Positions 1-35,404 of a DNA stretch of 55,732 nt are shown here, in pieces. The notes below the pieces were generated by a model. The model had not been told where the DNA came from, made no database searches, and was given only the letters and a program-made list of their open reading frames with translations. Origin of the DNA: a virus (lineage: Duplodnaviria; Heunggongvirae; Uroviricota; Caudoviricetes); the IMG/VR virus record IMGVR_UViG_2563366819_000003, positions 1 to 55,732 of that record. One strand, given 5' to 3'. How positions within the stretch are numbered: the first letter of the stretch is position 1; each line of letters starts with the position of its first letter. Made by a program: the position numbers and the translations under genes.

Positions 1-1164
1 TTACGCCTTCTTTATATCCTCCATAATTCCAGAGTGGGACATATTTGGGACATTATCACCAAAAATGTCGTCTATTTTCCTCGCATGCTCTGTCAAATGA
101 TTAGGCGCAAGGTGAGCATACCTACGAACCATTTCTATGGACTCCCATCCGCCCATTTCCTGAAGCACTGATAATGGGACGCCTGACTGAATCAGCCAGC
201 TTGCCCAGGTGTGTCTGAGGTCATGGAAACGGAAATCTTCAATTCCTGCACGACGACAAGCTGATAGCCATGATGTCTTGCTGTCGATGCGCATCTTCCT
301 GACCGCAGGCGTTGATGTTCCATCTGCTCGCTTAGCCGCCTTGGTATGTACAAACACCCATTTGTGATGCTTGCCTATTTGATCACGCAACACTTTACAG
401 GCGGTATCGTTCAGCGCCACACCAATGGCGCGGTTTGATTTGCTCTCTTCTGGATTCACCCAGGCAACTCGTCGCTGCATGTCGATTTGTTGCCATTCCA
501 GATTTATGATGTTCGACTTTCTCAGACCAGTTGCCAGCGCAAACTTGACGACAGATTTCAGTGGTTCGGGGCACTCATCAATAAGGCGTTTTGCTTCCTC
601 CTTTTCCAGCCATCTGACTCGCTTGTTTCTGACCGCTGGTATCTTGATGACAGGCGCTTTTTCCAGCCACTTCCAGTCGCGTTCTGCAGCACGGAGAATG
701 GCCTTTATCATGGCAAGATGCTTTGCCTTTGTCTGAGTTGATACTGGCTTTGGTTCATAAACAGGCGGTTCTTTACCTTTCCTGATGGCGGCCTGAACTT
801 TCTGTTTCCATATTTCTTTCGTCTTTCTGTTATGCATTCTGCTTACAGCAGAGTAAATCTTTGCCTCCGAGATATCTTTAAGCCTTATACCCTCAAAATG
901 TTCAAGCCAGAACTCAATCCGGCTTTTATCTGAATCGAGAGATTTTTTATCAGCTTTTTCCTCAAGCCATCTTAGGCAGGCCTCTTCAAAAGTGACATCA
1001 GGTAAATCCCCTAGCTTTTCTACTCGCCAGAGTTCTGCTTTTCGCTTGTCGTGCAACTCCTGAGCTTGCCGCTTGTCCTTTGTGCCAAGAGATTCCTTAA
1101 TTCGTTTCCCGCCCGGGAGCGAATACGAGGCATACCATATTTCATTTCTGCGGAAGAGTGACAT
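1..1164 (-). CDS. int: Phage integrase, tyrosine recombinase (lambdoid, DLP12/phage-21-like)
   Basis: 387-aa ORF with C-terminal tyrosine-recombinase motifs ([25 protein letters not shown]); first gene of the prophage, followed by xis-like gene and exo/bet/gam. Stop codon at window position 1-3. Confidence 0.93.
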
Positions 1165-12800: not shown

Positions 12801-13787
12801 AGCGTTAAGTTAACTTTTGTACCAGATGCTGCTTCCGCAGAACTTACTATGAGTACATCAAAACAGCAGATTGTGGCCGATGGTAGTGAAAGTGCAACAG
12901 TGGACATTCAGTTGGTTGATGCCAATAACAATGCGTTTACAGGCGATGTGGATTTAACGGTTACACCATCGACGGGAGCATCATTGACCAGTAGTAAACT
13001 GCAGTTGGATGCTCATGGACAGGCAACAACGCAGTTCACAGCATCGAAATCAGGCCAGTACACAATTCAGGCTGAGTATGTTCTAGATGGGAAACGTATA
13101 ACCGCAAGCAAAAATATTGATGCCGTGACGGATGTGAAGGAGGCTGTGTTGGAGATCACATCATCTGCATCTTCGGCTGTAGTGAGCGATACCAACAATC
13201 TGATATTTACGTTACTGTTGAAAAGTACGTCAGGCGAAGTATTAAGTGGTCGAGTATTGAATATCAAGGCATCTGGGCCGTCCAAATATGGTGCGTTGGT
13301 GGTTGATAAAACCACTGTAACGACTGATGAGTATGGTCTGGCTACGGTAAGCGTACATGGTCGAACGGCTGGTTCGTATAAATTAACGGCGACCTTAGAT
13401 GAACTTGGCAGTGATGTTAGTGAGGTGAAGTCATTCTCTCTGTATGCTGATGAGGCAAATGGAGTATTGACACTGCATAAAGATGGAGGCTATGACACAG
13501 ATGATGGTACTCCAGTGGGGGTTTATGCCCGATTTGTTGACCATTTCGGCAATCCGTTATCTGGTACGGTTGAGTTTTCTGCTGGTAGTGAAGATAGTCC
13601 AAACTCTCAACGGGTTAAAATGGAGCCTGCTACAGTAACGTTACACTGGACAGGTAATGCAGCCTCGGAGTTCAGCACCTATGAAAGCGGTTATCACTGG
13701 ATTAAGGCCAAAATAACGAACAGCAAAAATACATATGAGAAAACAATAAGGACTTATGTTGTAAAGCTCCCTGAAAAGGATAGTTAA
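9879..13787 (+). CDS. Intimin/invasin-family inverse autotransporter adhesin with multiple Big (bacterial Ig-like) domains
   Basis: 1302 aa; N-terminal signal-like segment, beta-barrel region typical of inverse autotransporters (WLQQYGNARIKLNVDD...), then repeated Ig-like modules including a tandem 119-aa duplication; AT-rich upstream region and terminator downstream. Confidence 0.8.
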   Translation: MTTVNKKLKKTASGAITWSVIVTQILSPVSLSLIPANSFASSDNKDVTQIYASDERANKVASFAVSAGQSLANNNASSFAVNTLSTQATKEVVDWLQQYGNARIKLNVDDSFSLKDSSFDFLYPWLDTQDYVLFSQTSLHRTDDRNQTNIGLGIRHFTPDNAMLGANVFYDYDLSRSHSRAGFGVEYWRDYFRLGVNTYFGLSDWKDSRDIDDYLERPANGWDFSAEGWLPAYPQLGASIQFEKYYGKNVGLFGSDNLQENPYAVTGGISYTPVPLIKFSAQHKQGQSNVHDTTFGVEFNYRPGVSLAEQLSSDNVAVMREVQNRRYDFVERNNNIVLEYKKKHALKISLPESVQGDGESIIPVTLTINNASGGIKSVQWNDSVFTAAGGKISGNGTSWQVTLPAYKSEGVNSWNVGATVQDNRGNVSNYAVMNISVINSGVSTADSSFMLDGDSSPTISADGQSTHPIVLSLKDSNGKALTGLADDIEMSVEFTADSNSARQRETVTAPSLGAVEEISAGVYRSVLTAGSQAGTVRVTAKVQGKTFTLNIKQAAVIDSDVSTADSSFTLDGDSSPTISADGQSTHPIVLSLKDSNGKALTGLADDIEMSVEFTADSNSARQRETVTAPSLGAVEEISAGVYRSVLTAGSQAGTVRVTAKVMDKTFTLSIKQTAATEPDSEVSAVLTAAPAEQVVGYNINLQLAVKDSQGNAITGDNTLSFYALNQAEGVEFGAVTEKDGVYSATVTSKRAGKIRIGVKSGSHNFSGIEKEISFIEDRTQFAFSRIEASKNNALADGKQQNTVTVSLADRFGNVVPGYAVTLSLPAGVTQVGGEHAVSTDENGNAVFALISSTPGSYVIKAHAGSQMSTELTVTFASNMIGASLSLTPGNSSLISNIPANGKDAAVLNVQLTNTNASVNGQKIQLITSSEGLSVPTNIVTDSTGHVSVPLTTVRAGEYTVAARVTDGSHSVESGSVKLTFVPDAASAELTMSTSKQQIVADGSESATVDIQLVDANNNAFTGDVDLTVTPSTGASLTSSKLQLDAHGQATTQFTASKSGQYTIQAEYVLDGKRITASKNIDAVTDVKEAVLEITSSASSAVVSDTNNLIFTLLLKSTSGEVLSGRVLNIKASGPSKYGALVVDKTTVTTDEYGLATVSVHGRTAGSYKLTATLDELGSDVSEVKSFSLYADEANGVLTLHKDGGYDTDDGTPVGVYARFVDHFGNPLSGTVEFSAGSEDSPNSQRVKMEPATVTLHWTGNAASEFSTYESGYHWIKAKITNSKNTYEKTIRTYVVKLPEKDS
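11197..11910 (+). repeat. Near-perfect tandem duplication (2 x about 357 bp) encoding a duplicated Ig-like domain within the adhesin gene
   Basis: Sequence from about 11201 (tgtctcgacagcggattcttctttt...) recurs at about 11558 almost identically; encoded peptide VSTADSSF.LDGDSSPTISADGQSTHPIVLSLKDSNGKALTGLADDIEMS... is repeated. Confidence 0.85.
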
Positions 13788-20039: not shown

Positions 20040-20260
20040 TCGGGTCCTTTCCGGCGATCCGACAGGTTACGGGGCGGCGACCTCGCGGGTTTTCGCTATT
20101 TATGAAAATTTTCCGGTTTAAGGCGTTTCCGTTCTTCTTCGTCGTAACTTAATGTTTTTATTTAAAATACCCCCTGAAAAGAAAGGAAACGACAGGTGCT
20201 GAAAACGAACTTTTGGGCCTTTGTCGTTTCCTTTCTCTGTTTTTGGCCGTGGAATGAACA
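20040..20260 (+). other. cos: Helper-phage cos site (cosQ-cosN-cosB); cosN 12-nt cohesive end gggcggcgacct at 20072..20083
   Basis: Sequence cgggtcctttccggcgatccgacaggttacg|gggcggcgacct|cgcgggttttcgctatttatgaaaattttccgg matches lambda cos as recalled; directly upstream of nu1. Confidence 0.88.
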
Positions 20261-20780
20261 ATGGAAGTCAACAAAAAGCAGCTGGCTGACATTTTCGGTG
20301 CGAGTATCCGTACCATTCAGAACTGGCAGGAACAGGGAATGCCCGTTCTGCGAGGCGGTGGCAAGGGTAATGAGGTGCTTTATGACTCTGCCGCCGTTAT
20401 AAAATGGTATGCCGAAAGGGATGCTGAAATTGAGAACGAAAAGCTGCGCCGGGAGGTTGAAGAACTGCGGCAGTCCAGCGAGGCAGATCTCCAGCCAGGG
20501 ACTATTGAGTACGAACGCCATCGACTTACGCGTGCGCAGGCCGACGCACAGGAACTGAAGAATGCCAGAGACTCCGCTGAAGTGGTGGAAACCACATTCT
20601 GTACTTTCGTGTTGTCGCGGATCGCAGGTGAAATTGCCAGTATTCTCGACGGGATCCCCCTGTCGGTGCAGCGGCGTTTTCCGGAACTGGAAAACCGACA
20701 TGTTGATTTCCTGAAACGGGATATCATCAAAGCCATGAACAAAGCAGCCGCGCTGGATGAACTGATACCGGGGTTGCTGA

Positions 20781-20806
<26 letters not shown>
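20261..20806 (+). CDS. nu1: Terminase small subunit Nu1
   Basis: 181 aa, near-identical to lambda Nu1 (MEVNKKQLADIFGASIRTIQNWQEQGMPVLRGGGKGNEV...). Confidence 0.95.
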
Positions 20807-23787
<2,981 letters not shown>

Positions 23788-23864
23788 AACCCTTGCTGCG
23801 TCTGGAATGTCGTTTTCCATGCTTTTGATGACCGTTCATCACCCTTCCAGTTTTTCGCGGTTTT

Positions 23865-23917
23865 GTGTATTGCAATGTGTATTGCAAATTGGCGATCGGG
23901 ATGGGTGTGTATTGCAA
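23865..23917. repeat. Three direct copies of GTGTATTGCAA upstream of satellite integrase (candidate arm-type integrase/regulator binding sites)
   Basis: gtgtattgcaa at about 23865, 23877 and 23907; related copies gtgtattgca / gtgtattgc at 34530..34551 near the other end of the element. Confidence 0.5.
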
Positions 23918-23935
23918 ATCTCTTGAGGGCTTTTA

Positions 23936-25177
23936 ATGGCTATTGAAAACAAACTCAGTGACAAACTGTTAAAGAGTCTTGTCGGAAAACGGCAGGACAA
24001 ACAAAAAACAATAGCGGATGGGCGCGGGTTGTCTGTGCGTGTAAGCATGGTTGGGGGGATCAGCTTTGTTTTTTACTATCGTCTTGGTGGCAGGGAATCC
24101 CCTCCGGTATGGCTTACACTTGGTCGCTATCCTGACATGTCTCTTGCAACGGCCAGGCGCATGCGTGATCAGTGCCGTGAATGGCTGGCTGAAAATCTGG
24201 ACCCCCGCAGGCAAATAAAACTTGCTGCCGAAAAAACTATGCAACCAGTGACCGTAAGGGATGCGCTGTTTTACTGGTACGACAATCACGCCACAACAGC
24301 CAGAAAAGAGCATGAATATTTAATAAAACGATTTGAAAAGCATATCTTCCCCTATATCGGTGATATGGCTATAGAACAGTGCAAATTACACACATGGCTT
24401 ACCGTCTTTGACAGGATCAAAAAAAATGCGCCTGTTATGTCTGGTGCAATTTTTCTTGATATCAAACAGGCGTTGCGTTTTTGTCGCGTCAGGCAATACA
24501 TCGCGTGCGATCCCTTTGGAGATATTAACGTAAGTTATGTCGGGCGCTCATCCGGTATAAGGGATCGCGTTCTTAATATCAATGAAACCGCTGATGTATG
24601 GTCTTATGCTTACGGTAATAATTTGCTAACTCTGTCATCAATATATAACCGAAGAATAATGGTTATCTGCCTGGTGTTTGGTTGCCGACAGCAGGAGGCG
24701 AGGCTATCCACCTGGGACGAATGGGATTTAAAAAACTGGGTATGGACAGTCCCAAAAGAGCACAGCAAAAACAAGGAGGCTATAGTAAGGCCTGTTCCTG
24801 ACGGAATAAAACAATGGATCGTTAATCTTTACGCAGAAACAAAAAATCGCGGTTATGTTGTCGGTTGTGCTTTGCAAAGGGCGACAATAACAGGGGCTGC
24901 AAACAGAATATGCAGGCGTCTTGGTCATGATACTAATGGCTTGTGGTGCATACATGATTTCAGGCGCACATTTTCCACTACGCTTAATGATATGGGGGCG
25001 GATCCTTATATTGTTGAACTTCTTTTAGGTCATAAAGTGAAAGGGGTTGCTGGTGTTTACAATAAAAGCAGGCATATAAAGAAAAAACTTGAGGTGCTTA
25101 ATATGTGGGTTAATTACCTTAATACGATAGCAGGATTTAACAACAACGTTATCGAGCTTAATAAAGAGGTGGTGTGA
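23936..25177 (+). CDS. int: Tyrosine integrase, P4-type
   Basis: 413 aa; C-terminal catalytic region (HDFRRTFSTTLNDMG...LLGHKVKGVAGVYNKS); at one end of the inserted element adjacent to the repeat. Confidence 0.9.
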   Translation: MAIENKLSDKLLKSLVGKRQDKQKTIADGRGLSVRVSMVGGISFVFYYRLGGRESPPVWLTLGRYPDMSLATARRMRDQCREWLAENLDPRRQIKLAAEKTMQPVTVRDALFYWYDNHATTARKEHEYLIKRFEKHIFPYIGDMAIEQCKLHTWLTVFDRIKKNAPVMSGAIFLDIKQALRFCRVRQYIACDPFGDINVSYVGRSSGIRDRVLNINETADVWSYAYGNNLLTLSSIYNRRIMVICLVFGCRQQEARLSTWDEWDLKNWVWTVPKEHSKNKEAIVRPVPDGIKQWIVNLYAETKNRGYVVGCALQRATITGAANRICRRLGHDTNGLWCIHDFRRTFSTTLNDMGADPYIVELLLGHKVKGVAGVYNKSRHIKKKLEVLNMWVNYLNTIAGFNNNVIELNKEVV

Positions 25178-25178
25178 T

Positions 25179-25436
25179 ATGGCAATTTATTCTCTTGTTG
25201 ATGAAAACGATTTGCGCACAATGAAGGACATTGATCGGTTCATTCGTGAAAAAGAGTGCATAGCACTTACCACGCTGGCAAACTCAACACGCTGGAAAAT
25301 GGAGCTAGCAGGTAAATTCCCGCGACGTATCAAGATCGGTGAACGTGCTGCAGGGTATCGACTTTCAGAGGTTCAGGCATGGATCCGTGGTGAGTGGCAT
25401 CCTGGATGGAAACCTGGAAAAACAAAACAGCAATAA
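25179..25436 (+). CDS. alpA: AlpA-family HTH regulator / excisionase-like protein
   Basis: 85 aa; AlpA-like segment LTTLANSTRWKMELAGKFPRRIKIGERAAGYRLSEVQAWI; directly downstream of the integrase. Confidence 0.8.
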   Translation: MAIYSLVDENDLRTMKDIDRFIREKECIALTTLANSTRWKMELAGKFPRRIKIGERAAGYRLSEVQAWIRGEWHPGWKPGKTKQQ

Positions 25437-25492
25437 CCAGTAAATAATGCCCCTCATCACGAGGGGTTTTTTGTCTATAAGGTAAAAACGCG

Positions 25493-26071
25493 ATGAATAA
25501 AAATATTGCCGTGACGGGCAAGGGGTACGCTCGTCCAGTGAAAAAATTCTGCGATATTCGTGATCTCGTCGTTCTGCGCTTTGATAGTGTGAACGTTCGT
25601 GTGGTGTATCTGAACGGCGATCCGTGGTTTGTTGCAAAAGATGTTTGTGCTGCGCTGGAACTAACCAATTCGCGTACGGCGTTGCAGATGCTTGATGATG
25701 ATGAAAAGGGAGTAAATTTAACTTACACCCCAGGAGGAAATCAGAATATGAGAATTATCTCTGAGTCAGGTTTCTACAAACTAATAGCCCGCAGCCGCAA
25801 AGCAACGACGCCTGGCACATTTGCTCATCGTTTCAGTAACTGGGTATTCAGAAATGTGATACCAGGTATCAGAAAAACGGGGACTTATGGTATCCCGTGG
25901 GGTGCATTACAGGATTTTTCCCGCCGTAAAGAGCAATATCAAATAAGTGCCAGCGAGAAGGGGAGGGAGCTACAGGCATGTAAGCGCAAAAAGCGTGAGC
26001 TGGAGGAAGAAGAAAAAACGCTGATACGTGAATATCAGCCTGAGTTTTACTTTGGTAACCGCATTCAGTGA
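25493..26071 (+). CDS. Bro-N domain protein (antirepressor-like)
   Basis: 192 aa; Bro-N-like core (VRVVYLNGDPWFVAKDVCAALEL...ISESGFYKLIARSRK...FSNWVFRNVIPGIRKTGTY). Confidence 0.65.
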   Translation: MNKNIAVTGKGYARPVKKFCDIRDLVVLRFDSVNVRVVYLNGDPWFVAKDVCAALELTNSRTALQMLDDDEKGVNLTYTPGGNQNMRIISESGFYKLIARSRKATTPGTFAHRFSNWVFRNVIPGIRKTGTYGIPWGALQDFSRRKEQYQISASEKGRELQACKRKKRELEEEEKTLIREYQPEFYFGNRIQ

Positions 26072-26404
26072 CAAAACAAAGGCGACCGCAAAAGGGTCGC
26101 CAGTGGGAACAAGGGAAAACAAAAGCATCACCAACAATGCCACATTTGCGGCTGGTGGGCAATGTGATCAGTCAGATTTGGTTCGTTCCAAGGTTTGCAA
26201 CGAGAGCTTTTTCCTGTGCTCTTTAAGGAATTTCTCAAGAGCAAACGAACAAGGTGCGAATCTTTCTGATTCATGTTCATGCGCTATATTTTTGCGTCGT
26301 CTCTTACGAGTTGGTGATGGTGTTTTGGTTGATTCTGTGTCGCTCATGGTGCTGTCCTGTAAAGCAATGCGCCTGCGTTCCTCAAACTATGGCGCTGATA
26401 TTGG

Positions 26405-26710
26405 CTATTCATGCTCTTTGACCTTGCGTCGCTGGAGTTCTTCACGCGCGACGGTGACGAGTTGCCCGATCTCCTCGGCTGCTTTGATGCCGATTTGTTC
26501 GACCTTAGCCAGGGCATCCAGTGACGACACAAGGGGATTTTCTCCGCTGCCTTCTGCTTGGCGGCGGGCTATTTCTCCGCGCATGGCGGTTACGATAAAT
26601 CCGGCATTGCTTTCACCGTCCAGCTTAACGGATTCCATCCCTTGCATAACATCTAGTGGGACTCTGACAGTTGTCAGTTGTGATTTTGCGTTTTTGTTAG
26701 CCGTTGCCAT
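26405..26710 (-). CDS. Hypothetical protein, divergently transcribed from the satellite replication operon (candidate regulator)
   Basis: 101-aa ORF on minus strand facing a promoter-operator-like region; no clear HTH recognised. Confidence 0.4.
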   Translation of the reverse strand: MATANKNAKSQLTTVRVPLDVMQGMESVKLDGESNAGFIVTAMRGEIARRQAEGSGENPLVSSLDALAKVEQIGIKAAEEIGQLVTVAREELQRRKVKEHE

Positions 26711-26770
26711 TTCTGAAACTCCTAATCATCGGTGTGTTTCAGTATACACAAAAAAAGAAATACAAAAAGC

Positions 26771-26809
26771 CTTGACGTGTGTTTCATGCGCTCATAACAT
26801 GAAACACAC
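26771..26809. promoter_or_regulatory. Promoter/operator candidate: TTGACG -35-like hexamer followed by a 12-bp perfect inverted repeat
   Basis: cttgacg tgtgtttcatg cgctcataa catgaaacacac; inverted repeat 26777..26788 / 26798..26809, between divergent genes. Confidence 0.4.
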
Positions 26810-26900
26810 CGAAAGGATTGTTGAAATACAAAGAGCAACGCCCCGCAGTGCTGGGAACACATACGGGGCGTCTAACCAACAACGTAAACTAGGAGCCGTT

Positions 26901-27098
26901 ATGGTTGCTGTAAATCATATACCACACCTTGTACACACACAAACGGCCTTTGTGTGGCGTTTTCTGGCACTGAGTGCCGGAGAATCTCAAATCATCCACG
27001 TAACCGCCTGGACGGAACGCGAAGCGCGTAGCCGTTGCCCGTCCGGTTGTGTTGCTGTATTCGCTGCAAAAATCCGCCAGGGAGTGAGTCATGCTTAA
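26901..27098 (+). CDS. Hypothetical small protein (65 aa), first gene of rightward satellite operon
   Basis: ATG at 26901 preceded by RBS AGGAG (26891..26895); lies at 3' end of a longer, compositionally odd ORF in the track. Confidence 0.35.
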   Translation: MVAVNHIPHLVHTQTAFVWRFLALSAGESQIIHVTAWTEREARSRCPSGCVAVFAAKIRQGVSHA

Positions 27099-27276
27099 AA
27101 CCTTCCGTGTATTTGCCCGAGCTGTTAACCCAATAGGCCACACAATTGGTATCGCTCAGAATGTGAAGGCTGTTAATGTTCAGACGGCTATTGCTGCGGT
27201 GAGAAGCGAATCATCAGAATATGGCTTATCACAAGTCATTATTTCAGCAGTGTATGAATTAAAAGAGGTGCATTAA
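27091..27276 (+). CDS. Hypothetical small protein
   Basis: 61-aa ORF with RBS GGAG upstream, overlapping neighbours by a few nt (translationally coupled operon). Confidence 0.35.
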   Translation: MLKTFRVFARAVNPIGHTIGIAQNVKAVNVQTAIAAVRSESSEYGLSQVIISAVYELKEVH

Positions 27277-27467
27277 TGCAGGAAATTACATTACACGAAG
27301 CCGCTGAACGTGCGCACCAGACAGAAATTATTTGCCGCCTTCTTGAGGTATACCCGAACAAAATTACAGATGCTGATATATCCGCACTGGCGAGCCTACT
27401 GGCGCGTCTTTCGGGAAGTGTCGCTAGTTTTTTGATTGAGGAAGAAAGTAAGCTGGTGGAGGATTAA
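27276..27467 (+). CDS. Hypothetical small protein
   Basis: 63-aa ORF in tightly packed operon. Confidence 0.35.
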   Translation: MQEITLHEAAERAHQTEIICRLLEVYPNKITDADISALASLLARLSGSVASFLIEEESKLVED

Positions 27468-27689
27468 ATGAATACAGAACGGGAAGTCTTTTTTAAATTG
27501 TTAGCATGTGCAGAAAGTTCATTAACTTTAAATAATTCAGCAAAAGCAATATTAAATATGTGGCTTGATTGCATAAATGACAATGAAGATGCAAATATTG
27601 CTTATGGTCTGTTGTCACTTATTGATGAATCAGCAGAAAAACTCAATGACGCAATAAATAGTGCCCTGCTATCAAATAAGTCGAGTTAA
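27468..27689 (+). CDS. Hypothetical small protein
   Basis: 73-aa ORF in tightly packed operon. Confidence 0.35.
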   Translation: MNTEREVFFKLLACAESSLTLNNSAKAILNMWLDCINDNEDANIAYGLLSLIDESAEKLNDAINSALLSNKSS

Positions 27690-27706
27690 GTCGAGGAATA
27701 AATAAT

Positions 27707-28006
27707 ATGGAAATGAAAAATTCTGGCTTTATTGCCAGCGGCCCAGCTCGACCTGAATTTATGAACGGCGATATTTACCGCGATAAATACGGCGGCACGG
27801 TAACGATTAAAGGCGTGGCAGAACGGCGCATCACTTACCGCCGTGAGGGGTATAGCTATGACTGCGTGATGCCTGTTTATCAGTTCCGGCGTGATTTTTC
27901 CCTGGTATATGCCGCACCCCGCAGTAAGCCCATCAGCAGGGAAAAAGCGTGGGGAAATATCCAGAAAATGAAAACCATGATTAACGGATTCAGAGGTAAA
28001 AAATGA
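27707..28006 (+). CDS. Hypothetical protein
   Basis: 99-aa ORF, stop overlaps primase start (ATGA). Confidence 0.4.
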   Translation: MEMKNSGFIASGPARPEFMNGDIYRDKYGGTVTIKGVAERRITYRREGYSYDCVMPVYQFRRDFSLVYAAPRSKPISREKAWGNIQKMKTMINGFRGKK

Positions 28007-29757
28007 AACTGGCACCGAACGTAAAACAGCAGTCACGCGGCATAAAACACAAAGGAACAGAAGTCATTATTTTTGCGGGTAGTGATGCCTGGGCACACGC
28101 GAAACAATGGCAGGAACATGATGCGCGTATGGCCGGAGATAATGAGCCTCCTGTGTGGCTTGGGGAGCAGCAGCTATCCGAACTGGATAATCTGCAAATT
28201 GTGCCGGAAGGCCGAAAATCAGCACGCATATACAGGGCCGGATATCTTGCGCCTGTAATGATAAAGGCGATTGGTCAGAAGCTGGCGGCAGCAGGCGTAC
28301 AGGATGCAAATTTTTATCCTGAGGGTATGCACGGCCAGGAGGTGCAGAACTGGCGCGAATATCTGGCCCGTGAACGCCAGAATCTTTCTGATGGTCTGGT
28401 CATTGAGCTTCCGGTAAAGCAAAAGGCGCAACTTTCGCAGATGGCGGACAGTGAGCGCGCGCAGTTGCTTGCCGATCGCTTTGATGGCGTTTGCGTACAT
28501 CCTGAAAGTGAAATCGTTCACGTATGGCGCGGCGGGGTATGGTGTCCGGTCAGCACAATGGAACTTAGCCGCGAAATGGTGGCGATCTATTCAGAGCACA
28601 GGGCCACTTTCAGCAAGCGCGTAATCAATAACGCCGTGGAAGCGTTAAAAGTTATTGCCGAACCAATGGGCGAGCCGTCTGGCGATTTGCTGCCGTTCGC
28701 CAATGGTGCGCTTGACCTGAAAACGGGGGAATTTTCCCCGCACACGCCGGAGAACTGGATCACCACGCACAACGGCATTGAGTACACGCCACCAGCACCA
28801 GGGGAGAACATCCGCGATAACGCGCCAAACTTTCATAAATGGCTTGAGCACGCAGCCGGAAAAGACCCGCGCAAGATGATGCGTATATGTGCCGCGCTGT
28901 ACATGATTATGGCGAACCGGTACGACTGGCAGATGTTTATTGAGGCCACCGGAGATGGCGGGAGCGGTAAAAGTACATTCACACACATAGCCAGCCTTCT
29001 GGCAGGGAAACAGAACACGGTAAGCGCTGAAATGACATCGCTTGATGATGCTGGTGGACGTGCGCAGGTTGTCGGGAGTCGTCTTATCGTCCTGGCTGAC
29101 CAGCCGAAATATACAGGCGAAGGAACGGGCATCAAGAAAATCACAGGCGGCGACCCCGTGGAAATTAACCCGAAATATGAAAAGCGTTTCACGGCGGTAA
29201 TCAGGGCGGTGGTGCTGGCGACCAACAACAACCCGATGATATTCACCGAACGGGCCGGAGGTGTGGCACGTCGTCGCGTGATTTTCCGTTTCGACAATAT
29301 CGTCAGTGAGGCCGAAAAAGACAGGGAGCTACCGGAAAAGATTGCGGCTGAAATCCCCGTTATTATCCGCCGATTGCTGGCGAACTTTACCGACCCTGAG
29401 AAGGCACGGGCTTTACTACTGGAACAGCGTGACGGTGATGAAGCACTGGCAATAAAGCAACAGACGGATCCGGTTATTGAGTTTTGCCAGTTCCTGAATT
29501 TTCTGGAGGAAGCGCGCGGCCTGATGATGGGTGGCGGTGGTGATTCAGTGAAGTACACGACCAGGAACAGCCTTTACCGCGTCTATCTGGCGTTTATGGC
29601 ATACGCGGGCAGGAGCAAACCGCTAAACGTGGCTGAGTTCAGCAAGGCCATGAAGCCAGCGGCGAAAGTTTACGGGCATGAATATATTACGCGAAAAGTT
29701 AAGGGAGTAACGCAGACCAACGCAATTACAACAGACGATTGCGACGCGTTTTTATAA
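28003..29757 (+). CDS. Primase-helicase (P4 alpha-like; primase domain plus P-loop NTPase)
   Basis: 584 aa; Walker A GDGGSGKST; overall architecture of phage/plasmid primase P4-family proteins; followed by iteron-like repeats. Confidence 0.85.
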   Translation: MKLAPNVKQQSRGIKHKGTEVIIFAGSDAWAHAKQWQEHDARMAGDNEPPVWLGEQQLSELDNLQIVPEGRKSARIYRAGYLAPVMIKAIGQKLAAAGVQDANFYPEGMHGQEVQNWREYLARERQNLSDGLVIELPVKQKAQLSQMADSERAQLLADRFDGVCVHPESEIVHVWRGGVWCPVSTMELSREMVAIYSEHRATFSKRVINNAVEALKVIAEPMGEPSGDLLPFANGALDLKTGEFSPHTPENWITTHNGIEYTPPAPGENIRDNAPNFHKWLEHAAGKDPRKMMRICAALYMIMANRYDWQMFIEATGDGGSGKSTFTHIASLLAGKQNTVSAEMTSLDDAGGRAQVVGSRLIVLADQPKYTGEGTGIKKITGGDPVEINPKYEKRFTAVIRAVVLATNNNPMIFTERAGGVARRRVIFRFDNIVSEAEKDRELPEKIAAEIPVIIRRLLANFTDPEKARALLLEQRDGDEALAIKQQTDPVIEFCQFLNFLEEARGLMMGGGGDSVKYTTRNSLYRVYLAFMAYAGRSKPLNVAEFSKAMKPAAKVYGHEYITRKVKGVTQTNAITTDDCDAFL

Positions 29758-29759
29758 TT

Positions 29760-30010
29760 TTTTGTAAAAGCCATCTACCCCATCTACCTGAACAAAATAA
29801 ACGCATATTATTCAACATGATAAGTGGGTATAGGGCTAGGTAGAAGGCTAATAAAAGCTCTCTACCTCTTCTACCTGATTTTATCAGTTTCAGGTAGCAG
29901 GGTAGACGGCAGGTAGAGGAGTCAAAAAGCTATCTACCCGCTGAAAGCCGCGCCATTACTGACATGATGAGCATTCGGGTAGATGGGTAGAGGGGGGGAG
30001 GCACAACTAA
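29760..30010. repeat. Iteron-like repeats (GGTAGA / TCTACC family) downstream of primase: candidate satellite replication origin
   Basis: Multiple direct and inverted copies: catctaccccatctacctg, ctaggtagaaggc, ctctacctcttctacctg, caggtagcagggtagacggcaggtagagga, gctatctacccgc, gggtagatgggtagag. Confidence 0.5.
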
Positions 30011-30103
30011 AAACTTTTTAAACGAGGGGGGTGAAAATAAATGCGCATACATAAAAATCACTTAACAAACATGCCAGCCGAAGACATGAATCAGGGGTGA
30101 CAA

Positions 30104-30355
30104 ATGACCAAAATTCGCAGAGACAGAACACAGGCAAAATATAAAGCGTTAGACATGACAGAGCTTTCCTTAAAGGTGGCAATCAAAGCGATAGACCACC
30201 ACACACGGGCAGGATACGCGAAGGAACATCCCGATCTGATAAGCGCATTCATGACCACAGCAGCGGCAAACTTTGCCACGCTGACAGAACGGGAGATTGC
30301 CGAAGCGGAACAGGTGACAACCATCAATGTTAAAACCGGAGAGCAGACAGCATGA
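30104..30355 (+). CDS. Hypothetical protein
   Basis: 83-aa ORF upstream of and overlapping the SSB gene start. Confidence 0.35.
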   Translation: MTKIRRDRTQAKYKALDMTELSLKVAIKAIDHHTRAGYAKEHPDLISAFMTTAAANFATLTEREIAEAEQVTTINVKTGEQTA

Positions 30356-30774
30356 CAGCACAGATAGCGGCTTACGGGCGGCTGGTGGCTGACCCGCAGT
30401 TAAAGACCACCAGCAAAGGGACACAAATGGCGATGGCGAGTATGGCGGTTCCCCTGCCGTGCAGCCAGGCAGATGACGGAACGGCGACGATGTGGTTATC
30501 CGTCCTGGCGTTTGGCAGACAGGCCGACGCACTGGCAAAACACCACAAAGGCGAACTGGTGAGCGTGGCGGGTAACATGCAGGTAAGCCAGTGGACAGGC
30601 CAGAACGGCGAAACGCGGCGGGGCTGGCAGGTTATCGCAGACAGCGTAATCAGTGCGCGAACGGCGCGACCGGGCGGCAAAAAAGGCCAGCAGGGGCAGG
30701 CCACTGACGCACTGAACAGGGCAAAACAACAGTCGGGGAATGATGATCCGTACGGCGATAATATACCGTTTTAA
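30352..30774 (+). CDS. ssb: Single-stranded DNA-binding protein (SSB-like)
   Basis: 140 aa; OB-fold-like body, Gly/Gln-rich linker and acidic C-terminal tip ...NDDPYGDNIPF resembling the SSB DDDIPF tail. Confidence 0.7.
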   Translation: MTAQIAAYGRLVADPQLKTTSKGTQMAMASMAVPLPCSQADDGTATMWLSVLAFGRQADALAKHHKGELVSVAGNMQVSQWTGQNGETRRGWQVIADSVISARTARPGGKKGQQGQATDALNRAKQQSGNDDPYGDNIPF

Positions 30775-30985
30775 ATTCTGCAAACAAAAAGATGCCGGAA
30801 AAAAATATATTTTCCGGCATGCTACATAAATCCCGACCAAAGGAAGTAAATACATTAACACGAATTATCAGCACTGAAGTTGTTACGGCATATTTTATAC
30901 AACATTGCACTTGGTTGCATGTATTCGCATAGCAGACATCGGTAATAGAATATATTCACAATTATTTGTAATGAATGTAAAGAGG

Positions 30986-32032
30986 ATGAGTATGGTTGAT
31001 TTATATTCGCCTACACAGCTTGTGCAGGTGGCTAATGCTGAAGATGTGCAAAAAAAATTAAATGCGTTGTTTACCAGTTTGTTTTTCACTCGCTCGGTAA
31101 TGTTTGAATCGAGAGACATTATTCTTGATACGATCGACGATCCAAATATCCCGATCGCGGCGTTTTGCTCTCCTATGGTGGGCAGTAAAGTTTCACGAGA
31201 TGAGGGATACGAATCAAAAACAATTCGTCCAGGTTATATGAAGCCGAAAAGCAGCATTGATCCAAATAAGTTAGCTGTGCGCCCTGCTGGTGTGTCACCT
31301 GAGCAATACAATGCTTTTGGGGCGCGTAATATTAAAGTTAAACAGGCGATTGTAAATCAGGCTAAAGCTATTCGTGCACGTATTGAATGGCTTGCTGTTC
31401 AGGCAATCACAACGGGGAAAAATATCATTGAGGGCGATGGTATTGAACGTTATGAGCTGGACTGGAATATAAAACCACAAAATATCATCACTCAGTCTGG
31501 CGGTACTGAGTGGTCAGGTAAGGATAAAGAAACTTTTGATCCAAATGATGATATTGAGAGCTACGCAGAATTTAGTGAGGGCGTCACTAATATCATCATT
31601 ATGGGTGGTAATGTATGGAAGAAATACCGTTCATTCAGAGCGATAAAAGAGGCTTTGGATACCCGTCGTGGTTCTAATTCCGAACTGGAAACGGCCCTTA
31701 AAGACCTTGGTGATTCGGTGAGTTTTAAAGGGTATATGGGCGATGTTGCGATTGTTGTTTACAGCGGGCGTTATACCGACGAGGACGGAACAGAAAAACA
31801 TTTCCTTGATCCTGATTTGATGGTGCTTGGCAATACGGCTCTTCAGGGGATTGTCGCCTATGGCGGTATTCAGGATCCGGAGCTAATCCGAATGGGGCTG
31901 ACTAAAGCCGAACTTGCACCGAAAAACTATATTGTGCCTGGTGATCCGGCTATTGAATATGTGCAGACACATTCAGCACCACAGCCAATACCGGCCCGCA
32001 TCAATCGTTTTGTTACCGTTCGCATTGGCTAA
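30986..32032 (+). CDS. Major capsid protein, divergent homologue of lambda E
   Basis: Starts MSMVDLY (lambda E MSMYTTA); shares blocks ITQSGGTEWS, DTRRGSNSELETA.KDLG, GDVAIVVYSG with the helper E at 37102..38127 (roughly half identical by eye). Start could also be 30992. Confidence 0.85.
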   Translation: MSMVDLYSPTQLVQVANAEDVQKKLNALFTSLFFTRSVMFESRDIILDTIDDPNIPIAAFCSPMVGSKVSRDEGYESKTIRPGYMKPKSSIDPNKLAVRPAGVSPEQYNAFGARNIKVKQAIVNQAKAIRARIEWLAVQAITTGKNIIEGDGIERYELDWNIKPQNIITQSGGTEWSGKDKETFDPNDDIESYAEFSEGVTNIIIMGGNVWKKYRSFRAIKEALDTRRGSNSELETALKDLGDSVSFKGYMGDVAIVVYSGRYTDEDGTEKHFLDPDLMVLGNTALQGIVAYGGIQDPELIRMGLTKAELAPKNYIVPGDPAIEYVQTHSAPQPIPARINRFVTVRIG

Positions 32033-32041
32033 GGGGGAGCA

Positions 32042-32383
32042 ATGGCTACTCATTACACTGAACTCATGGCTGGCACTGAAGCACTGGTGACTACGCTGGG
32101 GATATTTTCAGCTAATAAAGGGGTAATTCCTGCATTTACGCCACTGATGCAGGAAGATGCAACAGGTGCACTGGTGATATGGGATGGTTCGAGCGTAGGT
32201 AAAGCGGTTTATGTTTCCGCTGTACAAATCGACACAGCGAAAAAAACACAGGCACAGGTTTATAAGACAGGTGTTTTAAATGTTGATGCTCTGAACTGGC
32301 CTGAGTCTGTAAAAGAACTGTCGGCAAAGGTTGCCGCGTTTGTTGGCTCAGGTATTTCTGTTCAGCCGCTGGCTCGTGTGTAA
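32042..32383 (+). CDS. Head decoration protein, lambda D-like
   Basis: 113 aa, directly downstream of the E-like gene (same order as D-E reversed in lambda); similar size and pattern to gpD (FTPLM..., ...AV...GTAISV-like C-terminus). Confidence 0.65.
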   Translation: MATHYTELMAGTEALVTTLGIFSANKGVIPAFTPLMQEDATGALVIWDGSSVGKAVYVSAVQIDTAKKTQAQVYKTGVLNVDALNWPESVKELSAKVAAFVGSGISVQPLARV

Positions 32384-32394
32384 AGGGGGATACA

Positions 32395-32778
32395 ATGCAG
32401 AATCATTACAATGACCTTAAGCCAATTGCCGAAATGATGTATCCGGATCCAGCAGTAGAGGAATTAAAGGCTATTGCTGACAAAATGCGTTTAAGTGAAC
32501 GCCTTGTTGATATGAATCAGGTGATGGAACTTACTACCCTTAGCCGTCGCACATTGCTAAACCTTGAGGCTCGCGGAGAGTTCCCCGAACGCGTACAGGT
32601 TACGGAAGGGCGTAAGGCCTGGTATTTAAGTGAAGTGATCGACTGGATAAACAATATTCCTCGATCTTCTGAATATTGCCGCGTACCTGTCCCAAAAAAG
32701 CCAGATGCGGCGCTATGCCTCAAGATTGAGCGTGTACGTCGCAATGCACGGGATGGTCGCTATAAGTTGATTGGTTGA
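32395..32778 (+). CDS. AlpA-like HTH protein (second copy in element)
   Basis: 127 aa; segment LTTLSRRTLLNLEARGEFPERVQVTEGRKAWYLSEVIDWI has the AlpA-family pattern. Confidence 0.55.
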   Translation: MQNHYNDLKPIAEMMYPDPAVEELKAIADKMRLSERLVDMNQVMELTTLSRRTLLNLEARGEFPERVQVTEGRKAWYLSEVIDWINNIPRSSEYCRVPVPKKPDAALCLKIERVRRNARDGRYKLIG

Positions 32779-32799
32779 TGAAATTAGGGCCTGTTCTGG

Positions 32800-32875
32800 C
32801 TGGCGGGTCCTTTCCGGCGATCCGGTAGGCTACGGGGCGGCGACCTCGCGGGTTTTCGCTATTTATGAGCCTTTT
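32800..32875 (+). other. cos: Satellite cos site: cosQ/cosN identical to helper (cosN gggcggcgacct at 32835..32846), downstream cosB-side sequence divergent
   Basis: gggtcctttccggcgatccggtaggctacggggcggcgacctcgcgggttttcgctatttatga matches helper 20042..20106 except for a short patch; sequence after atttatga differs completely from helper. Confidence 0.85.
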
Positions 32876-32994
32876 TCGGGTGCTGGTGGTGGTTTTGTTG
32901 TTCGCTCTATCTCTATGAATAAAAAGGAAAAGATAAAGCCAATACACCAACCTGAAACATTACTTAAGTGGGGATATTGATGAAATCGCACCTG

Positions 32995-33522
32995 ATGAAC
33001 AAAAAAAACATGGCGCAAAGCTGCCGTGTAAGTGCGACAGCGTTCGACAAGTGGGGAGTGACTCCCGTTGAACGTAAAGGCCGCGAGGCGTTTTATGATG
33101 TTGCCAGCGTAATAGACAATCGGGTTAGCAATGCAATTAACCAGATTACAGACGACAAAGGCGAGATTGATGATGATGAACTCCTACGAGTCAGGATCAG
33201 ATTGCTGACAGCACAGGCAGAGGCGCAGGAGCTTAAAAACGAGCGCGAACGCGGCGACGTTATTGATACAGCGTTTTGTATATACGTGCTTTCAAAATTG
33301 GCGAGTCAGATTTCTTCAATCATGGACAGCCTGCCGCTTGCCATGACAAGGAAGTTTCCCGACATGAAGCCGTCTATGCTGGATGGACTGAAAAAAGAAG
33401 TTATCAGAGCCTGTAACGCATGCGCAAAACTTGACGAAAACATACCGCTGATGCTGTCCGATTATCTGATGGAAACTGCCGGAAACGTACCGGATAAGTT
33501 GCAGCCGAATAAAGATAAGTAA
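32995..33522 (+). CDS. Terminase small subunit, Nu1-like with divergent N-terminal DNA-binding domain
   Basis: C-terminal two-thirds resembles Nu1 (ELKNERERGDVIDTAFCIYVLSKLASQISSIMDSLPLAMTRKFP... vs helper ELKNARDSAEVVETTFCTFVLSRIAGEIASILDGIPLSVQRRFP...); N-terminal about 50 aa differ. Start chosen at MNKKNMAQ. Confidence 0.8.
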   Translation: MNKKNMAQSCRVSATAFDKWGVTPVERKGREAFYDVASVIDNRVSNAINQITDDKGEIDDDELLRVRIRLLTAQAEAQELKNERERGDVIDTAFCIYVLSKLASQISSIMDSLPLAMTRKFPDMKPSMLDGLKKEVIRACNACAKLDENIPLMLSDYLMETAGNVPDKLQPNKDK

Positions 33523-33533
33523 CGTAGTACGCT

Positions 33534-33815
33534 ATGACTGAATCCGAAATACTGCGATTAATCCGCCGTGCTTGTGGAATCAGCAAGCAGCATGACGAAC
33601 AGGCCACGCAGCCGGACAGCGTGACCGCAGATAATTATGTGCGTGTAGTGGCTGAGGTGATGCGCCGTGACGGTATTGAGCTTAACGGCGTGGATATGCG
33701 CAACATACGAACAAGAGTCCTTGAGTTGCTGGCATATCGTCGCCGTTCTCAACAACGGAGGGAGAGCGCGAAAAATACTTACCAGTGGAAGAAGCCGGAA
33801 CGATTGCGGCGGTAA
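33534..33815 (+). CDS. Hypothetical basic protein
   Basis: 93-aa ORF immediately after TerS; Arg-rich C-terminus. Confidence 0.35.
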   Translation: MTESEILRLIRRACGISKQHDEQATQPDSVTADNYVRVVAEVMRRDGIELNGVDMRNIRTRVLELLAYRRRSQQRRESAKNTYQWKKPERLRR

Positions 33816-33824
33816 CTTGCTGAT

Positions 33825-34222
33825 ATTCCCGATAACGCAAAATTGCGCTGGCTGACTTGTTGCATTGCAAAAAGTTAAGCAGGAAGGCACGGCCTGTAAG
33901 ATGGGATGCAGTAAGTAGTTCAAGGCTACCTTGTGCTGGCACGCACAGTTAAGCCGTCGGTGCTGGATATCCCCCACTGGGGGAAAAGCTGGCTACATCC
34001 CTCACATCTGAGGACTGATAACGCGACATTGCGCTGGCTGGCAAAGTGCAAAATTGCACGATGGCCTAACCCATTGATTATTTCGAAAACCTGCAATGCA
34101 GGAAATCGGGGAAGTAAGCCTAAGCTATTGATTGTTTCGAAAACCCCCATTGGGGGATGTCGGGAAAGTAAGACTAACCCATTGATTCTTCCACAATCCT
34201 CAATTTGAGGAGGCCGGAACGT
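33825..34222. repeat. Array of short hairpin-forming palindromes with differing stems in an ORF-poor region
   Basis: cgcaaaattgcg (about 33834), cccccactggggg (33971..33983), cctcacatctgagg (34009..34022), gtgcaaaattgcac (about 34055), cctgcaatgcagg (34100..34112), cccccattggggg (34154..34166), cctcaatttgagg (34207..34219); three share a flanking motif attgatt..ttcgaaaac. Confidence 0.45.
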
Positions 34223-34630
34223 CTACATAGCTGCATCGCCGTAATGATGATTCAGCCCACCAGCCAAATCAGCACAGCAACGACAGAATAGCCCGACACA
34301 GAAAAACCACGAATATGGGGTTTTTGTTATGACATGGTCATGATGACCACTCATACAAAACAGGTAAAGCCCACCAGCCTGATTAAAGGTTAACCGGAAA
34401 AAAGCCAGGTATCCAATCTCGATATGGGGATCCCTATATCGACATTAACGCTCACTAAAACTGTGCATATATGCATAGAAAAAGCATCCACCAGCTTTAT
34501 GACGGATGCCGCTCATCTTATAAATAATCGTGTATTGCAGTGTGTATTGCGACTCCTTTAAACGATAGGTCTGAGCATTCGTAATGTACTGTTTTTAAAT
34601 TTTATTTTTTCCTGTCTTTTCATAAAGGCG

Positions 34631-35404
34631 ATGTATGCCGCCACCATTGAGAGTGAGCTGGATACGCAGTCAGCGATGGATTTTATTCTGGGCGCGAACA
34701 GTCAGGAGCAGCGGGAAAGGCTGACCGGCTGGATTGGTGAAATTGCCGCGTATTACGCCGCAGCGCCGGTCCGGCTGGGAGGCGCAAAAGTACCGCACCT
34801 GATGCCGGGTGACTCACTGAACCTGCAGACGGCTCAGGATACGGATAACGGCTACTCCGTGTTTGAGCAGTCACTGCTGCGGTATATCGCTGCCGGGCTG
34901 GGTGTCTCGTATGAGCAGCTTTCCCGGAATTACGCCCAGATGAGCTACTCCACGGCACGGGCCAGTGCGAACGAGTCGTGGGCGTACTTTATGGGGCGGC
35001 GAAAATTCGTCGCATCCCGTCAGGCGAGCCAGATGTTTCTGTGCTGGCTGGAAGAGGCCATCGTTCGCCGCGTGGTGACGTTACCTTCAAAAGCGCGCTT
35101 CAGTTTTCAGGAAGCCCGCAGTGCCTGGGGGAACTGCGACTGGATAGGCTCCGGTCGTATGGCCATCGATGGTCTGAAAGAAGTTCAGGAAGCGGTGATG
35201 CTGATAGAAGCCGGACTGAGTACCTACGAGAAAGAGTGCGCAAAACGCGGTGACGACTATCAGGAAATTTTTGCCCAGCAGGTCCGTGAAACGATGGAGC
35301 GCCGCGCGGCTGGTCTTAAACCGCCCGCCTGGGCGGCTGCGGCATTTGAATCCGGGCTGCGACAATCAACAGAGGAGGAGAAGAGTGACAGCAGAGCTGC
35401 GTAA
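34631..35404 (+). pseudogene. B: Portal protein B, C-terminal fragment (257 aa), in frame with N-terminal fragment if the insert is removed
   Basis: MYAATIESELDTQSAMDFILGANSQEQ... continues lambda B exactly where the 22906..23735 fragment stops. Confidence 0.9.

Follow-up and report, generated by a model that had tools for sequence, protein, structure and literature searches.

A satellite-specific cosB and an N15-class small terminase in an island embedded in a lambda-like prophage

The window considered here, that is the whole 55,732 nt of IMG/VR virus record IMGVR_UViG_2563366819_000003, is a lambda-like prophage carrying a parasitic element of about 10.9 kb in its portal gene B. This satellite (23736-34624, plus strand), delimited by its open reading frames (ORFs), its Pfam matches and its flanking identity blocks, splits gene B into a 5' part (22906-23735, plus strand, Pfam Phage_portal_2 positions 2-237) and a 3' part (34631-35404, plus strand, positions 238-354), and the two junctions share an 8-bp block of identity, AAGGCGAT (23728-23735 and 34625-34632). 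The main genes of the satellite are all on the plus strand, co-oriented with the late genes of the helper, and follow the order int, alpA, Bro-N, DUF4222, primase, SSB, gpE-like capsid, gpD-like decoration, a second AlpA-like gene, cos, small terminase (TerS) and an ORF of 93 residues. Pfam matches were obtained to Phage_integrase, Phage_AlpA, D5_N/DUF5906 (primase), SSB, Bro-N, Phage_cap_E and HDPD. The int, alpA and primase genes of a phage-inducible chromosomal island (PICI) are thus present; lysis and tail genes are absent, and so are portal, protease and large terminase. By the split portal, the junction blocks, the orientation and the gene set the element is a helper-embedded PICI (HE-PICI), a configuration described by Tommasini, Mageeney and Williams in 2023 (bioRxiv 10.1101/2022.07.18.500453; PMC10111431), and the helper portal cannot be made until the satellite excises. 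Here, we report on the cos site of this satellite and on the TerS of 180 residues that is encoded next to it (32980-33522, plus strand), which recur as a pair in satellites of several enterobacterial genera and may together form a cassette that redirects packaging.

Two cos sites within one prophage

The satellite cos and the helper cos are identical at 62 of 65 positions (32804-32868, plus strand, against 20041-20105, aligned without gaps in the register of cosN), which corresponds to bp -31 to +34 when counted, as throughout this text, from the base with which the cohesive end begins. The shared block holds cosQ, a spacer, the cosN cohesive end and a GCTATTTATGA box, and all three mismatches fall in the spacer between cosQ and cosN. 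The match is real and beyond chance; outside it, identity falls to 40/100 over the next 100 nt and to 6/27 over the 27 nt upstream. The heptamer GGGTCCT, which we take to be cosQ as in lambda, is found at 32805-32811 (plus strand, bp -30 to -24) in the satellite and at 20042-20048 in the helper, and the 12-nt cohesive end GGGCGGCGACCT of the satellite (32835-32846, plus strand) is identical to that at 20072-20083 of the helper. No further cosN-like site with at most one mismatch was found on either strand of the window. A sequence-only reading of the window had proposed that the satellite cos matches that of the helper through cosQ and cosN and is there joined to a different cosB. Both statements are borne out, and the positions it gave were right to within one or two bases.

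The helper cos extends over 20042-20237 (plus strand) and contains lambda-type R sites, assigned following PMC9026076, at 20121-20136 (R3), 20179-20194 (R2, inverted) and 20222-20237 (R1). At the place of R3 the satellite harbours a (GGT)3 run, GGTGGTGGT, at bp 51-59 (32885-32893), followed by TTTGTTGTT, so that the whole element occupies 32885-32902 (plus strand) in the register of the N15 R3. A second, inverted element, ACACCAACC (reverse complement GGTTGGTGT; 32944-32952, minus strand, bp 110-118), is R2-like and probably corresponds to R2; N15-class phages with a three-part cosB have ACAACAACC where the satellite has this element. The divergence of the two cosB sequences was originally described as complete. 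The fall in identity is indeed steep, but MAFFT still pairs an A-rich stretch of the satellite cosB with the helper R2, and the satellite cosB is homologous to lambda-like cosB sequences of another class. R-site-like repeats had been suggested as something to look for. A generic repeat search of 32780-33560 revealed no R-like family, and only a comparison with relatives brought out R3 and the putative R2. The strict IHF consensus WATCAANNNNTTR has no site in the satellite cosB.

The satellite small terminase and its pairing with R3

Judged by its alignments, the satellite TerS is a full-length small terminase of the lambda family with a DNA-binding domain of the N15 gp1 class. An N15-class winged-helix domain is followed by a helical linker, an assembly region and a C-terminal region. 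By BLASTP the protein aligns over its whole length with the Nu1 of the helper (20261-20806, plus strand, itself a full-length match to Pfam Phage_Nu1) at 35% identity and an E value of 2e-35, and its tail runs 13 residues past the end of Nu1. The nearest phage protein is N15 gp1, with 47.6% identity across 91% of the length. Identities to N15 gp1 and to helper Nu1 are, respectively, 60% and 40% in the DNA-binding domain, 54% and 46% in the assembly region, and 38% and 39% in the last 41 residues. The Pfam model PF07471 (Phage_Nu1) matches TerS with 85.8 bits (cutoff 30) at residues 66-148 only (model positions 80-162), and it is because of this partial match that the sequence-only reading saw a chimera, with a Nu1-like C-terminal part and an unrelated N-terminus. 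The Nu1-like part was correctly recognised, but the N-terminus is related both to N15 gp1 and, more distantly, to helper Nu1, and no foreign domain has been joined to the protein.

Modules are shuffled within this protein family, N15 gp1 itself being lambda-like in its C half. A Superficieibacter satellite (L012:4001-4504) joins the satellite-type DNA-binding domain to a lambda-like C half, whose identity to the Nu1 of the window helper is 80% in the assembly region and 63% in the last 41 residues, and to judge from this protein the DNA-binding and C-terminal halves of TerS get exchanged. An AlphaFold2 model of the satellite TerS (alignment of nine sequences, mean pLDDT 63.6, 68-81 in the N-terminal blocks) shows at its N-terminus the order strand-helix-helix-strand-strand-helix of a winged helix-turn-helix. 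When this model was compared with the PDB by Foldseek, weak MerR-like matches only were obtained (RacA, GlnR and CbpM, E above 0.1) and neither 1j9i nor 6hn7 was recovered; the model is therefore taken as loose support for the winged-helix fold.

Scanning IMG/VR and one genome per species added 114 further loci. The phage-type loci, about 55 in number and stemming from Enterobacterales, Pseudomonas, Aeromonas, Halomonas and others, have gpA immediately downstream of TerS in every case, a recognition helix with the signature SL.IS[VTP]QAF[DE]KW and the R3 GGTTGTTGTT (bp 50-59) at a fixed distance from the GCTATTTATGA box. In the satellite-type loci, of which there are about 65 (Escherichia, Citrobacter, Enterobacter, Kosakonia, Superficieibacter), the genes upstream encode capsid and decoration proteins, and downstream of TerS, as in the window satellite, no gpA homologue was found. 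Their helix reads SC[RK]V[SG][AV]TAFDKW, and (GGT)3-5 followed by [T/G]TTGTT stands at the place of the phage R3. In N15, where mutagenesis placed R3 at bp 48-59 and showed bp 54-59 to be the most critical positions (PMC4669245), a (GTT)3 run lies at exactly bp 51-59. The (GGT)3 of the satellites is in the same register and differs at bp 52, 55 and 58.

In 35 distinct cos sequences from satellites, GGTGGTGGT does not vary, nor does the GGGTCC of cosQ, while the cosQ-cosN spacer and cosN vary as a mosaic. The GGT run is three to five units long; in 65 of 67 satellite loci its 3' end lies at bp 59 and further units extend it toward cosN. The DNA of the satellite cosB together with the DNA-binding domain found no match among 50,697 phage records, and neither the (GGT)3 R3 nor the satellite helix signature, both present in about 65 satellites, occurs in these records or in the roughly 55 phage-type loci. 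The pair is thus private to satellites, as had been supposed, and in these comparisons the satellite R3 is a satellite-only derivative of the N15-type R3. Satellites such as L049 and L051 combine an identical private cosB with other cohesive ends (for example GGGCGGCAGACG instead of GGGCGGCGACCT) and other cosQ-cosN spacers. The left part of the satellite cos appears to have been replaced by recombination, presumably with the cos sites of helpers.

The cosB-TerS module was found in 761 of 5426 complete E. coli genomes, O157:H7 included. E. coli EC28 shares the 1.5-kb stretch around the satellite cos and TerS at 100% identity, and many other E. coli chromosomes share it at 99.9%. Among the E. 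coli copies of TerS the ratio of non-synonymous to synonymous substitution rates (dN/dS) is 0.12-0.21, and dN is lowest in the DNA-binding domain. The gene is under purifying selection, and the proposal that a lambda-family small terminase adjoins the satellite cos is upheld. Further pairs of helper and satellite were sought among the E. coli relatives H87, H77 and H73, all of which proved to be chromosomal PICIs (roxA/phoQ, cspD/clpS).

In the E. coli PICI EcCICFT073 of strain CFT073 the gene after cos is rppA, encoding a protein of 144 residues that matches RppC (6hlk) at 5e-31. The PICI of O157:H7 (L125:14021-17203) and EcCICFT073 (L009:15612-18666) occupy the same roxA/phoQ site and are 95.5% identical from the capsid gene to about bp +42 of cos and once more beyond a second, inverted cos copy. 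Only the cassette between these parts differs, being cosB and TerS in the former and cosB and rppA in the latter. Homology resumes at the inverted cos copy and at the 93-residue ORF, which in the window lies at 33534-33815 (plus strand) and is conserved behind the cassette in PICIs of the TerS type as well as of the Rpp type. As they fill the same slot between 95.5% identical flanks, the two cassettes are alleles of that slot. The rppA cassette was found in 95 complete E. coli genomes, so that at the megablast level the TerS cassette is about eight times commoner (761 versus 95). The satellite TerS gave no BLASTP alignment with RppA, and no Rpp was returned by a sequence search of the PDB, nor by such searches with the AlpA-like protein encoded upstream of cos and with a 137-residue protein of the satellite L005.

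The second, inverted cos copy lies downstream of the TerS or rppA gene at L125:16801-16875, at about 8729 of L005 (minus strand) and at L009:18263-18339, and its cosB side looks helper-like (CCGATCTTCTTC versus CCGTTCTTCTTC in lambda). The window satellite has one cos only, since the stop codon of TerS and the next ORF are 11 nt apart and leave no room for a second copy. In the cos1 of EcCICFT073, the segment at bp 55-63 that Murialdo and Feiss proposed as R3-PICI (PMC9026076) is ACCACCACC, which on the opposite strand reads as the satellite (GGT)3.

Redirected packaging and its alternatives

In the mechanism that we propose, the parts of the satellite site that serve cutting and termination (cosQ and cosN, bp -31 to +34) are of helper type, while the anchoring part, cosB, belongs to satellites only. 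Upon induction of the helper the satellite would excise and the portal gene would be restored. The satellite TerS would then bind the (GGT)3 of its own R3 and place the helper gpA (20781-22706, plus strand) on the shared cosN, and satellite concatemers would be cut and packed into capsids built by the helper. The helper Nu1 would be unable to use the satellite cosB, as this site is without lambda R sites. We put the probability that cos and TerS of the satellite form a packaging-specificity cassette of this kind, with TerS directly recruiting the helper gpA, at roughly 60%; that packaging is redirected at all, whether directly or indirectly, is considered quite likely. Terminases specific for lambda and for phage 21 package cosB-N15 chromosomes at a frequency of about 1e-4, and a terminase composed of an N15-specific TerS and the lambda large terminase (TerL) packages cosB-N15 chromosomes efficiently and lambda chromosomes too (PMC4669245). 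Since the lambda terminase fails on an N15-type cosB and an N15-type TerS works with the lambda TerL, redirected packaging is plausible.

A number of observations weigh against this interpretation. The packaging of lambda DNA by the N15-specific terminase means that specificity may be one-way rather than exclusive (PMC4669245). TerS proteins bind TerL through their C-terminal part (PMC6739421, PMC9026076), and in the last 41 residues, the presumed TerL-binding region, the satellite TerS is only 39% identical to helper Nu1, compared with 80% for N15 gp1. Across 45 phage pairs the identity of these 41 residues to helper Nu1 correlates with that of gpA residues 1-48 to helper gpA (Spearman 0.74), and in some phages a gpA that is 79-87% identical overall to the helper gpA accompanies a TerS C-terminus of only 25-40% identity. 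The C-terminus of TerS and the N-terminus of gpA are on this evidence a co-varying specificity pair in phages, and the satellite TerS may therefore not fit the helper gpA. A homologue search with TerS residues 95-180 alone returned satellite proteins only and no close phage relative. Direct recruitment of TerL by the satellite TerS is consequently regarded as uncertain. The pairing of helix and R3 has its own difficulties. In L005 (7906-7923) and L084 GGT units have been lost and the downstream TTTGTTGTT is shifted by 6 or 3 bp, leaving the run out of register, and the phages L108 and L109 carry VTAFDKW, with the T of the satellite signature, and yet have (GTT)3. Furthermore, the association of domain type with R3 type divides two clades and may reflect one evolutionary event and not repeated co-variation, and the AlphaFold2 model of TerS is only moderately confident. 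On account of L108 and L109 we reject the suggestion that R3 specificity is set by nothing more than the exchange of Q for T in the recognition helix.

The main alternative is a bridging mechanism like that of Rpp, in which the satellite TerS would read its own R3 and co-assemble with helper Nu1, through the central assembly region or the dimer interface of the DNA-binding domain, and the C-termini of Nu1 would bring gpA. The mixed complexes would lose affinity for the helper cosB, and packaging of the helper would be inhibited. Rpp acts in this manner and requires the helper TerS (PMC6739421, PMC6092414), and its cassette is allelic with the one studied here. The assembly region of the satellite TerS is also closer to helper Nu1 than its last 41 residues are (46% versus 39%), and the C-terminal region evolves fast among satellites, with 34-54% identity between lineages. 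On the other hand, the satellite TerS has no sequence similarity to Rpp and, unlike Rpp, has kept the whole C-terminal half, which is under purifying selection (dN below dS) and includes residues invariant across phages and satellites, K138, A144, P156 and Y162 among them. The exchange of halves in the Superficieibacter protein suggests that the C-terminal region matters for fitting helpers, and the acquisition of a lambda-like C half fits best with direct contact to the helper machinery. Bridging is seen as possible but rather unlikely.

Two other accounts would dispense with a specific role for one or both components. TerS and cosB could be a roleless late-gene fragment of a former N15-class helper, the present helper terminase packaging the satellite by way of cosQ and cosN. 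HE-PICIs and other PICIs do take up late genes of helpers (PMC10111431), and plasmids with the EcCICFT073 cos, which lack the phage cosB, are still moved by lambda, at reduced frequency (PMC6092414, PMC6739421). Such passive capture is nevertheless very unlikely, given that the satellite signature and the (GGT)3 R3 are missing from all phage loci and records compared, that the ORF is intact and constrained in about 65 satellites of several genera, that R3 is invariant while the neighbouring parts of cos are mosaic, and that the lambda terminase packages an N15-type cosB at the very low frequency given above (PMC4669245). Alternatively, TerS could be chiefly a decoy directed against the helper that titrates gpA or Nu1, with the variant cosB irrelevant to packaging of the satellite. 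Satellites often block packaging of their helper, as with Ppi and Rpp (PMC6739421), and the regions for interaction with the terminase are retained in the satellite TerS. Interference of this kind alone is highly improbable, as it leaves unexplained why (GGT)3 beside the gene is so strictly conserved and held in one register and why dN is very low in the DNA-binding domain. A cassette that redirects packaging through direct recruitment of gpA remains our preferred interpretation.

The inverted (GGT)3 in the cos1 of EcCICFT073 allows for a broader and doubtful conjecture, in which (GGT)3 would be a satellite-only packaging address of enterobacterial PICIs that is read by the N15-derived TerS (GGTGGTGGT, bp 51-59) and, inverted, by the unrelated Rpp (ACCACCACC, bp 55-63), the cassettes being swapped via the flanking cos copies. 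If so, satellites would possess a packaging code orthogonal to that of every lambda-like phage, and the TerS version would free them from the small terminase of the helper.

The surrounding prophage and related systems

The helper has its integrase gene at 1-1164 (minus strand) and genes for lysis at about 17.8-19.0 kb; those for head and tail follow gpA up to the end of the window. In the early region of the helper (9879-13787) an inverse autotransporter of 1302 residues is encoded that resembles intimin and invasin (IAT_beta, Big_1, Invasin_D3) and is likely a virulence or adhesion moron. Rfam at gathering scores found no family in the whole window (1-55732), the C4/isrK immunity RNAs of some PICI Bro zones included. 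Within the satellite the decamer TGTGTATTGC occurs at 23864, 23876 and 23906, just upstream of the integrase gene, and again at 34541 near the right end; these copies are probably arm-type integrase sites, and the decamer may correspond to a doubled motif that has been reported from the attP regions of HE-PICIs.

The capsid and decoration genes of the satellite (30905-32383) encode a gpE-like protein (Phage_cap_E, 4e-41) and a gpD-like protein (HDPD, 5e-15), the counterparts of which are dispensable in EcCICFT073 (PMC6092414). Directly upstream of cos lies the gene for the second AlpA-family protein (127 residues, 32395-32778, plus strand), which matches PDB entry 8c3t at 8e-11 and is kept at 70-75% identity in several lineages of TerS-type satellites from other genera; an unrelated ORF of 137 residues replaces it in L005, L125 and CFT073. 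In Erwinia endophytica (L013:4001-8489) an N15-class pair of TerS and gpA is followed, about 1.2 kb past gpA, by an integrase gene whose product is 70% identical to that of the window satellite. The integrase points to a comparable satellite, embedded here in a helper that would itself have a TerS of the N15 class; the contig stops before any satellite cos.

The concept of a private cosB, a TerS encoded by satellites in pac-type islands of Staphylococcus aureus (SaPIs) and the HE-PICI configuration have all been published, and a survey in 2018 recorded terS homologues in some Gram-negative PICIs (PMC6092414). In the literature, of which our coverage is incomplete, no description was found of an N15-class TerS lineage confined to enterobacterial satellites, of a (GGT)3 R3 or of allelism between a TerS cassette and the Rpp cassette. 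Packaging specificity determines which DNA exits a lysing cell, and for the cos-type islands of E. coli Rpp is the sole mechanism that has been worked out. The TerS cassette would be a second solution, nearer to that of the SaPIs in that it employs an entire small terminase whose DNA-binding domain has been re-tuned. The occurrence of (GTT)3 and (GGT)3 in one register constitutes a natural experiment on how R3 is read by the DNA-binding domains of lambda-like TerS proteins, and bears on N15-type recognition with a single R site. Should the specificity prove truly orthogonal, the TerS/cosB pair could serve as a part for PICI-based delivery vehicles free of co-packaged helper DNA.

In the cos-type island SaPIbov5 and in P4 the specificity of the helper terminase is unchanged, and neither a satellite TerS nor an altered cosB is known from them. 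Like the satellite described here, they carry the cos site of the helper, and SaPIbov5 also encodes a capsid-protein homologue (PMC6092414). The pac-type SaPIs, as far as the work of Ubeda et al. 2007 is represented in PMC6739421, resemble our proposal in that a small-terminase homologue of the satellite picks the satellite genome and uses the large terminase of the helper; according to the same account they differ in packaging by headful (pac) and not by cos, in having an unrelated TerS family, and in requiring a separate inhibitor, Ppi, of which no counterpart was identified in the window satellite. HE-PICIs share with the window satellite a tyrosine integrase that targets a late gene of a lambdoid prophage, the co-orientation and the order of zones (PMC10111431), and the insertion site at about Phage_portal_2 237/238 is at or next to the published site B:Phage_portal_2:241 (PMC10111431). 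Their model element 11capE has no terS and shares 258 bp of cos with its helper at 90% identity (PMC10111431), whereas the window satellite shares 65 bp only, followed by a private cosB and TerS. On terS the HE-PICI papers state only that 11capE and EcCICFT073 lack it, and TerS and cosB are not analysed there (PMC10111431).

Private cosB sequences in E. coli PICIs are already known from EcCICFT073 and Rpp (PMC6739421, PMC9026076). EcCICFT073 (Fillol-Salom et al. 2018, 2019; Murialdo and Feiss 2022), like the window satellite, is an E. coli PICI of a lambda-like helper with helper-like cosQ and cosN, its own cosB, a specificity element at the R3 position and a winged-helix protein encoded right after cos, and its synteny of capsid, decoration, small ORF, cos, specificity gene and 93-residue ORF is that of the TerS-type satellites. 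It differs in that RppA has 144 residues, in place of a TerS homologue of 180 residues with a Phage_Nu1 match and with assembly and C-terminal regions, in the R3 element (ACCACCACC at bp 55-63 instead of GGTGGTGGT at bp 51-59) and in having two cos sites instead of one. With N15 gp1 and cosB-N15 (Feiss et al. 2015, PMC4669245) the satellite shares the class of the DNA-binding domain (60% identity, with AFDKW in the recognition helix) and the position and triplet periodicity of R3 (bp 51-59), and both cosB sequences are of a kind that the lambda terminase cannot use, that of the satellite by its sequence class. The two systems are set apart by (GGT)3 versus (GTT)3, by a helix SC[RK]V[SG][AV]T versus SLGISVQ, by a C-terminus of the satellite protein that in its last 41 residues is 38% identical to that of N15, the latter being 80% identical to lambda-type Nu1, by the lack of a large terminase beside the satellite gene, and by an R2-like inverted element that lies upstream of the gene in the satellite, where N15 has a remote rR2 inside gene 1.

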